Positions 10,767 through 13,324 of a stretch of DNA of 64,000 nt are shown piece by piece. Numbering within the stretch: the stretch's first letter is position 1; every line of letters starts with the position of its first letter. This stretch comes from Puniceicoccales bacterium. GTDB taxonomy: Bacteria; Verrucomicrobiota; Verrucomicrobiia; Opitutales; JAIRKQ01. Location of the stretch: the NCBI GenBank assembly GCA_031268175.1, contig JAIRXR010000011.1, positions 115,659-179,658 of the forward strand. Direction: 5' to 3'. A model generated the notes under the pieces. The model worked only from the letters and a program-made list of their open reading frames with translations. It was not told the origin of the DNA and did not search any database. The translations under genes and the position numbers were made by a program.

Positions 10767-11141
10767 ATGAAGATTGTTTCAAAAAAGGACATGAATGTGA
10801 GCGCCGTCTTCCCGCTGCCTGGCGACGTGAAGGCGGAGAAAAAAAATGCGGAGGTGGAGCCCCAGGCAAAGAAAGCACCGAAGACGGCCGTCAAAGTCGT
10901 TGCCAACGTGGATGTTGGCTTTGGAAATTACCTGTACATTCGCGGCGATGGCTGCGGGCTGTCGTGGGATAGGGGCGTTGAAATGGAGTCCGTCGATGGC
11001 AGTCACTGGCTGTGGGAGTGCGAGTGCGGCTGTGGGAAAAAATGCTTCGAGTTCAAGGTCCTGGTAAATGATGAACGTTGGTCTAGTGGAGAAAATTTCG
11101 TGGCCATCGCTACGATGAACGAAATAGCACCGCAGTTTTAG
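10767..11141 (+). CDS. small protein with a CBM20-like (starch/glycogen-binding beta-sandwich) domain
   Basis: Strong GGAGGTG Shine-Dalgarno 8 nt upstream. A Lys-rich, disordered-looking N-terminal ~45 aa is followed by the pattern V.V.ANVDVGFGNYLYIRGDGCGLSW...M...W.W......FEFKVLVNDERWSSGENF, which resembles carbohydrate-binding module 20. Confidence 0.5.
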   Translation: MKIVSKKDMNVSAVFPLPGDVKAEKKNAEVEPQAKKAPKTAVKVVANVDVGFGNYLYIRGDGCGLSWDRGVEMESVDGSHWLWECECGCGKKCFEFKVLVNDERWSSGENFVAIATMNEIAPQF

Positions 11142-11218
11142 GCAACTGCGGCGCCCATTTGACTTTCTAGCCGAATTTTGTTGTTTTTGTAAATACGCAA
11201 ACTATACACCGAATTCCT

Positions 11219-12568
11219 ATGACGGATAAGAATAGTCCAGAGTTTTTGCTAAAAATCCTTTCCGGGAACCATCAGGGAGCTGAAATCGTCTTCGGATGCG
11301 AAACGGCCGTCATAGGAAATGACATCAGCGGCGACGTCGTGCTTTCCGATTCTCTCATCAGCCCAAGGCACGTCGAAATCACGTTCGCCGAGACTGGAGT
11401 CACTCTTAAGCCGCTGAATAGCAAAGTTTTTGTCGATGGAAAGCTAGTCAAGGATGAGGTTTTCAAGGTTGAGGAACTGCAATTCATAACCATCGGAGCC
11501 ACGCACATCGTAATCGGACCAGCCCACGAAACATGGCCCGCCATATCCGCCGGCGATGCGCCGCAAATAGAGGAGGATGGGGACATCAAAGACGAGCCGA
11601 GCGCCATCGAGATAGATGACAAAATCACCGCCAGCGGCGGCAGCGTGGCAAAGATAAGGAAGAAAAAGACGTGGATATACGGTGTCGGCGCCCTTCTGGT
11701 GGCGACTTTTGCAATTGCCCTGCTGTTTTTCATGTCGATGTTTTCGGAGCCGGAAAAAGTTGTGAAAAAACCGGATACGTTCGCGCTTTTGCAAAGTCTG
11801 ATCCGCGAACTCGGTCTGACAAACGACGTGATAATTTCGAGGACCGACACCGGCTTCGTCGCGAGCGGGTACGTCACGTCGAACAGCGAACTGGCAAAGC
11901 TGCGCGATGGACTTCTCGCCATAGACCCGCTAGTAAGAAAAAAAATTTACAGTGAGGAAAAAATTCTCTCCGACATAAACACGCTGCTGGGGCACATTCC
12001 ATCCCATCCAAAGGTACAACCTGCCCCAAACGGTGCTTTCCTGCTCACTGGCTACGCCTACGACGCCAATGAGTGGAGCAAAACGCGCAAGCGCATAGTG
12101 GAAGACGTTGTTGGAATTACCGATCTGCAGGACGAAGTCATACTGCCACAGAGAGCATTCAATCTCTCAAGGCCAATAATAGCGAAGTATAAACTGGCCG
12201 GAAAGGTCGGCATTCTCCCGCAACTCGACGGAATAGTACTTGGCGGAATTGTTTCAGGTGATGAGGAGGAAAATTGGAAACTGGCTAAATCGCAGCTGGA
12301 AAAAACCTTTGGCAGAGATGTACTGGTAAAAAATTTCGTTAAAGTGAGTGATCCGGAAGTCATAAAGCATCAGTATTTTGGAAGCGAGGTAAACAGCGTA
12401 TCCATCAGCGAAAACGGAATGAACTGGGTAAGTTTCAAGGATGGAGCTAAATACATGGTCGGGGCAACGCTGTCGAATGGCTACTCCATCAAGGACATAA
12501 CGCCGGATCACATAGTGCTCACAAAGGATAACCAAACAATCATTCTAAGAATAGGAGAACTCAAGTAG
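11219..12568 (+). CDS. sctD: type III secretion inner-membrane ring protein SctD (YscD/EscD/HrpQ family)
   Basis: N-terminal FHA-like domain (res ~10-100), one TM helix (WIYGVGALLVATFAIALLFFMSMF, res ~152-175) and a ~270-aa periplasmic region ending ...GYSIKDITPDHIVLTKDNQTIILRIGE. Size (449 aa) and architecture match SctD. Confidence 0.7.
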   Translation: MTDKNSPEFLLKILSGNHQGAEIVFGCETAVIGNDISGDVVLSDSLISPRHVEITFAETGVTLKPLNSKVFVDGKLVKDEVFKVEELQFITIGATHIVIGPAHETWPAISAGDAPQIEEDGDIKDEPSAIEIDDKITASGGSVAKIRKKKTWIYGVGALLVATFAIALLFFMSMFSEPEKVVKKPDTFALLQSLIRELGLTNDVIISRTDTGFVASGYVTSNSELAKLRDGLLAIDPLVRKKIYSEEKILSDINTLLGHIPSHPKVQPAPNGAFLLTGYAYDANEWSKTRKRIVEDVVGITDLQDEVILPQRAFNLSRPIIAKYKLAGKVGILPQLDGIVLGGIVSGDEEENWKLAKSQLEKTFGRDVLVKNFVKVSDPEVIKHQYFGSEVNSVSISENGMNWVSFKDGAKYMVGATLSNGYSIKDITPDHIVLTKDNQTIILRIGELK

Positions 12569-12796
12569 ATGGACAGTGGGAAAATGGAGCGGCAAGTCTT
12601 CGTCGACATGGAAAAAAGTCTTCTCGACGATAAATCCGGAGCGTATCGCAAAGAGCTGGTAAATAAGCTGCTCCAATATGAATCCGAAGTGAATGCCATG
12701 ATGCATAGCGCCAACAACGATGGAAAACTATTTGAACGATTCGATACGCTGAAAACCGCCATTCGGAACGCCAAGGAGACAATCGAAAAGTTCTAG
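12569..12796 (+). CDS. small helical protein, YscE/CdsE-like (T3SS needle co-chaperone candidate)
   Basis: 75 aa. Its ATG follows the sctD stop with no gap. Two predicted helices are separated by a Gly/Asn turn (…HSANNDGKLFERF…), and size and position match yscD-yscE / cdsD-cdsE gene order. Sequence similarity itself is unverified. Confidence 0.4.
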   Translation: MDSGKMERQVFVDMEKSLLDDKSGAYRKELVNKLLQYESEVNAMMHSANNDGKLFERFDTLKTAIRNAKETIEKF

Positions 12797-12895
12797 TACG
12801 CAACACTCGCCGGCAATGTAAAAAATGACGCATTTGCTGTTCCATTTCGTCAAAGATTTTTATAACTTTTCGTAATTTTTGCCGGAAGCATCGCC

Positions 12896-13324
12896 ATGCA
12901 CAGCGGGATTATTTTTCTTCCAATCAATTGCAAAAATATAGATGATATAAACCCGCTAGAATTGCCGGTCGCCGTGGCATACGTAGCGGCGCCAGATGAT
13001 GAGGTCGCCATCGATTTTGCGTGGGAAATATCTCCAAAATCCGCGGAAATGTTGAGCCAGACGGCAAATGTTGCGCCTTCGCCTGGGAAAAACTTCATAC
13101 GCCTCAGCGGCGAAGACGATATTTTTCGCAGCGTAGAAATTGGGAAACACCAACTGATCGGACGCACCGACGTGGTTAGCGGGTACCGCGAAAGCGGCGC
13201 AAGGATCCACATGGAGCTCCCCAGCAGCAATGCTTCTGTCCTGCATCCCACGCCGTCGTGGCCACTGAACATTGGATCTCCGATCATCGAACGCAGCGTG
13301 GTGATTCTCTCCAGCGGCAAATGA
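12896..13324 (+). CDS. hypothetical acidic protein (142 aa)
   Basis: Chosen over two antisense ORFs because its codon and amino-acid composition resemble confirmed genes (frequent ata/gaa/aaa/att, balanced D/E/K), whereas the antisense frames are Ser- or Arg-rich. No recognised motif. Confidence 0.4.
   Translation: MHSGIIFLPINCKNIDDINPLELPVAVAYVAAPDDEVAIDFAWEISPKSAEMLSQTANVAPSPGKNFIRLSGEDDIFRSVEIGKHQLIGRTDVVSGYRESGARIHMELPSSNASVLHPTPSWPLNIGSPIIERSVVILSSGK

Follow-up and report, generated by a model that had tools for sequence, protein, structure and literature searches.

Gene pairs comparable to the one described here belong to the type III secretion systems (T3SSs) of Yersinia, where they are named yscD-yscE, and of Chlamydia, where they are named cdsD-cdsE (CT664-CT665). 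In Yersinia, the ysc genes form a single large plasmid-borne cluster, and the chlamydial cdsD-cdsE locus goes on with cdsF, cdsG, cdsN, cdsQ and cdsC. Chlamydiales normally have complete T3SSs whose genes are distributed among several loci (PMC3459982). YscE and YscG are co-chaperones of the needle protein YscF (PMC9426511), and the roles of the T3SS E, G and F proteins are documented in two sources (PMC9426511, PMC3084799). Here we analyze a 64-kb window (the whole stretch of DNA under study, part of a 271-kb contig, JAIRXR010000011.1) from a Puniceicoccales bacterium. We consider it likely that positions 11219-12796 of this window are an sctD-sctE operon, the surviving fragment of an ancestral sctD-E-F-G(-I) module in a Puniceicoccales genome in which the T3SS genes are scattered.

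How does this locus compare with the known systems? As in chlamydial CdsD, an FHA cytoplasmic domain is combined with periplasmic ring-building modules, and sctE comes after sctD. CdsD is about twice as long as the window SctD, with additional sequence at its N-terminus and two FHA domains instead of one. The window row, unlike the chlamydial one, ends after two genes. With Yersinia YscD-YscE, the locus shares the domain order of SctD, the D-then-E gene order and matches to the family models PF16697 and TIGR02500 and, through relatives of its SctE, PF08988, whereas the identity to YscD in structural alignments is 17–22% and the direct profile match of SctE to YscE/AscE/PscE is weak. Furthermore, like the Chlamydiales, which are host-associated and belong to the Planctomycetes-Verrucomicrobia-Chlamydiae (PVC) group, the window has its T3SS genes dispersed among housekeeping genes (PMC3459982), and its arrangement is a more extreme form of the scattered T3SS known from that order.

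The search for sct genes covered the window and ~10 kb on each side of sctD in the relatives. These comprised 25 Opitutales/Puniceicoccales sctD loci, two loci of uncultured organisms from ENA metagenomes (L032 and L033) and the Endozoicomonas loci L026-L031 and L037.

The SctD and SctE proteins

A preliminary description of the locus had read the 449-aa protein, with its FHA domain, transmembrane segment and periplasmic part, as SctD, and comparison with the YscD/HrpQ families bears this out. The protein matched TIGR02500, the curated SctD equivalog model, with 146.3 bits (cut-off, 86), residues 9-444 being aligned to profile positions 1-412 of 413. Two Pfam domains also scored above their cut-offs, namely PF16697 (Yop-YscD_cpl, 51.4 bits versus 33.2) and PF23893 (Y4YQ_C, 43.6 bits versus 27). 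The gene had already been annotated by the NCBI pipeline, since a 100%-identical protein carries the name SctD there. About 40 SctD homologues with 46–70% identity were found, all of them in Puniceicoccales/Opitutales metagenome-assembled genomes (MAGs) or unnamed metagenomes.

The predicted structure points the same way. An AlphaFold2 model of SctD, computed with 20 homologues, reached a mean predicted local distance difference test (pLDDT) score of 78.5, with values of ~90 in the periplasmic part. It comprises, in order, an FHA beta-sandwich, a disordered acidic linker (residues 119-154, pLDDT <50) ahead of the transmembrane segment, a membrane helix, three alpha/beta modules (pLDDT ~90) in which the succession helix-strand-strand recurs, and a C-terminal beta domain, the last being the most conserved stretch of the family alignment. 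Both the FHA domain and the three ring-building motifs that the preliminary description had associated with SctD are therefore seen in the model. In Foldseek comparisons, the FHA domain resembled those of YscD (4d9v, TM 0.83) and CT664 (3gqs, TM 0.84, 30% identity), and the periplasmic part resembled YscD (4alz, E 4e-10) and CdsD (4qq0, E 1.5e-9, TM 0.69); PscD, MxiG and PrgH were further matches in the PDB. By sequence profile, the nearest solved proteins were fragments of chlamydial CdsD (3gqs, 5e-11; 4qq0, 1.5e-5), followed by YscD (1e-4). Judged from these profiles and the model, ORF (open reading frame) 11219-12568 is a full-length and genuine SctD.

Could the 449-aa protein instead belong to an FHA family outside the T3SS, such as T6SS Fha, the mycobacterial FhaB/FipA-like proteins or GspC/PilP? 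Some sub-threshold matches would agree with this, namely FhaB_Rv0019c (22 bits versus 125), T2SSB (18.3 versus 28.4) and T2SSC (11.7 versus 27), the latter two falling on the C-terminal domain. However, the SctD equivalog model is matched above its cut-off over the full length, the periplasmic part has the fold of CdsD and YscD, the 449-aa ORF is apparently coupled in translation to an SctE gene, and sctF and sctG come next in the row in relatives. We give this identity almost no credence. The preliminary description had itself set it against its own reading, and it was rejected, as all such families score far below their cut-offs.

The second gene follows without a gap, as had been described: the sctD stop codon TAG (12566-12568) abuts the ATG of the 75-aa ORF, and an AGGAG lies ~10 nt 5' of that ATG. 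Thus, sctE is apparently translationally coupled to sctD. Its product adjoins SctD in all of the Opitutales/Puniceicoccales loci (25/25), with a length of 74–76 aa, which falls within the ~65–85 aa of SctE proteins, and an identity of 40–69%. PF08988 (T3SS_needle_E) was matched by 8 of 20 members of this family; five syntenic orthologues reached 22.1–25.0 bits (gathering score, 22) in alignments to model positions 3-61 (of 67). When 1.84 billion representatives were searched exhaustively by phmmer, the window protein found 12 matches at E ≤1e-3. Nine short matches were scanned, of which five exceeded the PF08988 threshold of 22 (22.6–29.7 bits), while two more had PF08988 as their only or top sub-threshold match, so that this model ranked first for 7/9 overall. 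Furthermore, hhalign aligned the 75-aa family with the family in the sctE position of Endozoicomonas (probability 94.6%, E 7e-8), and reciprocal searches with hidden Markov models (HMMs) of the two families found only each other among ~8,300 ORF segments. On the strength of the phmmer relatives and syntenic orthologues that pass PF08988, together with the hhalign result, the 75-aa protein belongs to the YscE/SctE family, in keeping with its initial designation as YscE-like.

A needle subunit, SctF, was considered as an identity for the 75-aa protein because its orthologues end in IEKFR or IQNFR. The C-terminus of the window protein, IEKF, resembles those of MxiH and PrgI (IIQNFR), a scan for the C-terminal motif picked the 75-aa family beside true needle proteins, and the size and helical character agree with a needle protein. 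On the other hand, Pfam T3SS_needle_F was matched by 0/20 members compared with the eight for T3SS_needle_E, hhalign to the Endozoicomonas SctF family found nothing, and an HMM of six needle proteins scored the family at noise level (E 15–20). The protein also has no P-x-x-P turn, and L032 encodes it in addition to a separate needle gene. These results make a needle subunit highly improbable, and we retain SctE as the identity of the 75-aa protein. As proteins, both gene products are ordinary representatives of their families, SctD and SctE.

The ancestral module and the rest of the machine

The closest fuller version of the row is found in L032 and L033, which have an orthologous SctD (46% identical to the window copy) and SctE (37–45% identity) in the same order and between housekeeping genes. 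There, however, sctF, sctG and an SctI-like gene are kept after sctE, which the window clade has lost or moved. In L032 (10001-12843), sctD, sctE (74 aa), sctF (86 aa) and sctG (131 aa) stand in a row that ends with an SctI-like gene of 157 aa and is flanked by housekeeping genes, and the sctG product is 35% identical to Endozoicomonas SctG. In Endozoicomonas, a small sct module likewise lies among unrelated genes, its SctD being 24–26% identical to that of the window and having the same Y4YQ_C end; its SctE family is homologous, and a CesT-type chaperone is present. The order there is sctD, a YscE-like gene (PF08988, 16–19 bits), sctF (PF09392, 67 bits) and a TPR gene resembling YscG/HrpB1, so that this gammaproteobacterium, in contrast to the window, keeps the needle gene and the SctG-like gene directly downstream. 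The same D-E-F-G order occurs in Yersinia and Chlamydia as well. Beyond the Endozoicomonas module and its CesT gene, no other sct genes occur within 10 kb, and the flanks carry genes for an acyl-CoA synthetase and a 1135-aa glycosyltransferase/DUF4135 protein.

In all other Opitutales loci, the row ends after sctE and continues with prs/recA, with nusB/rsmI and pilD, or with other genes. Because L032 and Endozoicomonas keep sctD-E-F-G(-I), the window pair can be understood as one piece of a needle-base module that was present ancestrally. The five-gene module of L032 likely represents the ancestral state of the window locus, and we read sctF, sctG and sctI as having been moved or lost from the locus in the window clade. 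In the window and all loci, tblastn with the L032 proteins, the six-needle HMM and the C-terminal motif scan detected no homologues of the needle, SctG or SctI outside L032/L033 and Endozoicomonas. A metagenome scan with an alignment of SctG from L032 and Endozoicomonas found no needle module in the termite-gut relatives and was uninformative, and a scan with SctD, which returned one short contig and one Endozoicomonas-like locus only, was uninformative on the remaining genome.

The pair itself is well maintained. Pairs of sequences that were not saturated (dS 0.16–0.32) gave ratios of nonsynonymous to synonymous substitution (dN/dS) of 0.05–0.11 for sctD and 0.05–0.16 for sctE, and the length and adjacency of the two genes are invariant across the 25 loci. 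The substitution pattern indicates that the sctD-sctE pair is under strong purifying selection. The window also encodes a CesT-family chaperone with a pI (isoelectric point) of 4.42, whose gene stands solitary, 48 kb from sctD, with hisS on one side and the gene of a GNAT acetyltransferase on the other. It is weakly similar to the CesT-like gene that accompanies sctDEFG in Endozoicomonas, and L001, one of the relatives, likewise has a CesT gene ~10 kb from its sctD. Because of the purifying selection and the chaperone in the window, we argue that the rest of the machine would be encoded elsewhere. Taken together, selection, the invariant length and adjacency, and the retained CesT chaperones indirectly favor a working secretion system.

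If the system works as its relatives do, the FHA-like domain of SctD would be cytoplasmic and would offer the site at which members of this family dock the sorting platform. The single helix would span the inner membrane, the three periplasmic modules would oligomerize around SctJ, giving with it the inner-membrane ring of 24 subunits, and the C-terminal beta domain would extend to the secretin. SctE, a small helical protein and putatively a two-helix hairpin, would act with SctG to hold the needle subunit SctF monomeric before export. The genes sctC, J, N, Q, R, S, T, U, V, F, G and I would then be located elsewhere in the genome, and the machine would serve an interaction with a eukaryotic host, probably the protists of the termite gut.

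Several results weigh against an sctD-sctE operon of a scattered T3SS. No structural sct gene (C, J, N, Q, R, S, T, U, V or F) other than the pair was found in the window by Pfam and NCBIfam scans of ~55 ORFs (essentially all) and the needle HMM, and NCBIfam gave no sct match for ten unannotated window proteins. Nor was there any structural sct gene within ~10 kb of sctD in the 25 Opitutales loci, save for those of the L032 type; sctG and sctF, the partner genes of sctE, are absent from the same regions. In the window locus, sctF, sctG and sctI are not at their ancestral position. At the level of the proteins, the Yop-YscD_ppl periplasmic domains of Pfam matched SctD at 24.3, 18.2 and 12.6 bits, all sub-threshold. 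The 75-aa window protein itself has no Pfam or NCBIfam match and misses PF08988; a comparison of its family profile with the solved YscE/AscE/PscE was in register but weak (E 0.016, probability 2.8%), and a profile search of the PDB sequences found no T3SS match. The isolation of the pair from other structural sct genes is shown only locally, for the window and the neighborhoods of the relatives. As the preliminary description had noted, the pair is not followed by genes for a needle, a secretin, an ATPase or an export gate, and this holds for the whole window. Its comparison with the scattered genes of Chlamydiae also stands, as the pair lies between housekeeping genes in every relative and the nearest solved sequences are those of chlamydial CdsD.

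Could the injectisome have been lost in a reduced genome, leaving sctD-sctE as a slowly decaying relic or as a pair recruited to some other task in the envelope? One such task might involve the type II/type IV pilus-like machinery, the prepilin peptidase of which is encoded next to the pair. A relic or recruited pair would agree with the lack of other sct genes in the 64 kb and in the neighborhoods of the relatives, with the disappearance of sctF, sctG and sctI from the position that they hold in L032 and Endozoicomonas, and with a lineage that has undergone genome reduction (PMC11257099). In addition, the prepilin peptidase gene pilD is adjacent in the window and in L007, L017 and L018. However, dN/dS values of 0.05–0.16 across the clade rule out neutral decay, and CesT-type chaperones are retained. 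The adjacency of pilD is not kept across the clade, the sctE-pilD neighborhood being retained in those three relatives only, and the only known role of SctE is with the needle subunit. Scattered but complete T3SSs are, moreover, the rule in Chlamydiales (PMC3459982). On balance, a relic or a repurposed pair seems unlikely, and an operon belonging to a scattered T3SS remains the explanation that we favor.

Neighboring genes and open reading frames

The features of the locus are listed in Table 1. All of the ORFs of the preliminary description (449, 75 and 142 aa and the convergent peptidase) are present where it had placed them, and the position at which it began, 10767, is the first base of a 124-aa ORF that it left undescribed.

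Table 1. Features of the sctD-sctE locus and of the window.
Feature	Position	Strand	Basis or remark
124-aa ORF (NCBI hypothetical LBI61_03580)	10767-11141	+	upstream of sctD
sctD, 449 aa	11219-12568	+	T3SS inner-membrane ring subunit
SctD FHA-like cytoplasmic domain, residues 9-101	11243-11521	+	AlphaFold2 beta-sandwich; Foldseek
SctD transmembrane segment, hydrophobic residues ~162-185	11702-11773	+	WIYGVGALLVATFAIALLFFMSMF; AlphaFold2 helix 147-175
SctD periplasmic ring-building (BON-like) modules, residues 187-245, 246-308, 310-377	11777-12349	+	AlphaFold2, Foldseek
SctD C-terminal beta domain (Y4YQ_C type), residues 391-444	12389-12550	+	PF23893
sctE, 75 aa, YscE family	12569-12796	+	directly 3' of sctD
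142-aa ORFan (NCBI hypothetical LBI61_03595)	12896-13324	+	without evidence of module membership
Prepilin peptidase (PilD/GspO type), 289 aa	13381-14250	-	Pfam A24_N_bact 105.5 bits, Peptidase_A24 57.8 bits
CesT-family chaperone gene	60976-61461	+	Pfam PF05932 50 bits versus cut-off 22

Of the 25 loci, the 15 that form the closer clade have the 124-aa ORF directly upstream of sctD, with 42–60% identity. Its codon score of 0.25 is gene-like, and a hairpin covers its stop codon, 78 nt 5' of sctD. The protein has 28 homologues, all hypothetical, and matched nothing in Pfam, NCBIfam or the PDB sequences; no Sec-type signal peptide is apparent by eye. Its AlphaFold2 model consists of a disordered basic N-terminus (~residues 1-40) and a beta-sandwich (residues 41-124) at pLDDT >90, for which Foldseek found in the PDB the CBM20 domain of STBD1 (8x8k, E 3.6e-5, TM 0.61) and the starch-binding domains of glucoamylases (TM 0.5–0.6). 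The model thus predicts a CBM20-like fold, with glucan binding as a putative function.

Might the 124-aa protein be a partner of the secretion system? Chlamydia exports glycogen enzymes in a T3SS-dependent manner, and a parallel can be proposed in which the 124-aa protein would be a substrate. The injectisome would then have been split beyond the state in Chlamydiae, down to an sctD-sctE unit with a new, dedicated CBM20-like partner, perhaps a T3SS substrate for host glycogen or starch, and with fast-evolving effectors in the slot after sctE. We regard this extended scenario as distinctly unlikely, and a role of the 124-aa protein as a secreted glycogen-binding protein is speculation.

Upstream of this ORF, the 881-nt gap to rsmI (9886-10766) is unusually long and contains only ORFs with low coding scores, among them a possible small lipoprotein ORF (10421-10720, minus strand; MKKIPWSMIVCLLVLLVLVPAC...). 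The corresponding gap in L001 is ~415 nt.

On the other side of the pair, the 142-aa ORF had been included in the module as a protein with the size and charge of a secretion chaperone, which our results do not support. It has no Pfam or NCBIfam match at E up to 1, and among 5.8 billion proteins it matched only itself (an NCBI hypothetical protein). No counterpart was found in the relatives at the DNA or protein level (blastn and tblastx of the intergenic region), including L007, which has the sctE-pilD order, and neither phmmer nor hhalign linked it to the ORFs that occupy this slot in the relatives. The chaperone reading is unsupported because neither these proteins nor the syntenic relatives contain a homologue. 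A CesT/Syc-type chaperone accordingly has no support as an identity, there being no family match, no homologue and a pI of only 5.07. The earlier label of an acidic orphan is half right: no relatives were found, but the protein is only mildly acidic (17 acidic versus 11 basic residues). Its codon score of 0.149 is at the low end of that of real genes (0.10–0.30), and the antisense ORF scores 0.02. The 142-aa ORF is a lineage-restricted ORFan without a demonstrable link to secretion, perhaps a gene that arose recently in this lineage, perhaps an ORF present by chance.

In L007 (12006-12452, plus strand) and L015 (5989-6519, plus strand), the slot after sctE holds a mutually homologous ORF of ~145–175 aa. 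These ORFs are weakly conserved (reciprocal phmmer E ~5e-4), and the 142-aa ORF has no similarity to them. The slot may be a fast-evolving gene position.

The prepilin peptidase gene beyond it, correctly described earlier as convergent and now matched by both A24 domains, is a neighbor that lies outside the T3SS module. About 15 kb from it, four genes for pilin/pseudopilin-like proteins (GspH/ComGD-like), which carry N-terminal methylation motifs, occupy 28293-30367 on the plus strand; given this distance, genes of the type II/type IV pilus type are dispersed too. Apart from this pseudopilin cluster and the CesT-family chaperone, the window ORFs recognized by Pfam and NCBIfam are housekeeping genes.

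Rfam searches of 9800-13500 and of the whole window found three tRNAs and nothing else, and a scan for promoters and terminators gave nothing exceeding the shuffled background. One of the tRNAs, tRNA-Pro at 59101-59177 (plus strand), has the anticodon AGG (anticodon loop TTAGGGA). A tRNA-Pro with A34 is unusual in bacteria; either wobble decoding through inosine or an odd decoding set would follow from it.

Type III secretion genes in termite-gut Opitutales

The isolate names of the sctD-carrying relatives and their accession prefixes (JAIR, JAIS and JAIT) match the termite-gut MAG set of PMC11257099. The window genome, with locus tags LBI61 among the LBI56 and LBI81 of relatives, presumably comes from the same project. 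In that set, the families LL51 and UBA9783 of the Opitutales have small genomes and NTT transporters and are putative endosymbionts of flagellates, and the Opitutales families include the intranuclear Ca. Nucleococcus (PMC11257099). For the termite-gut Opitutales/Puniceicoccales lineages, the literature searched contained no report of type III secretion.

Our results place a selectively maintained injectisome component in these lineages, and the name SctE is now given to a 75-aa ORF that by itself matches no family model. T3SS detectors that are based on gene clustering will under-call such genomes. The finding bears on the symbionts of the PVC group and on the evolution of the T3SS. Should these bacteria possess the rest of the machine, they would share with Chlamydia, within the PVC group, a toolkit that combines a scattered T3SS with energy parasitism.

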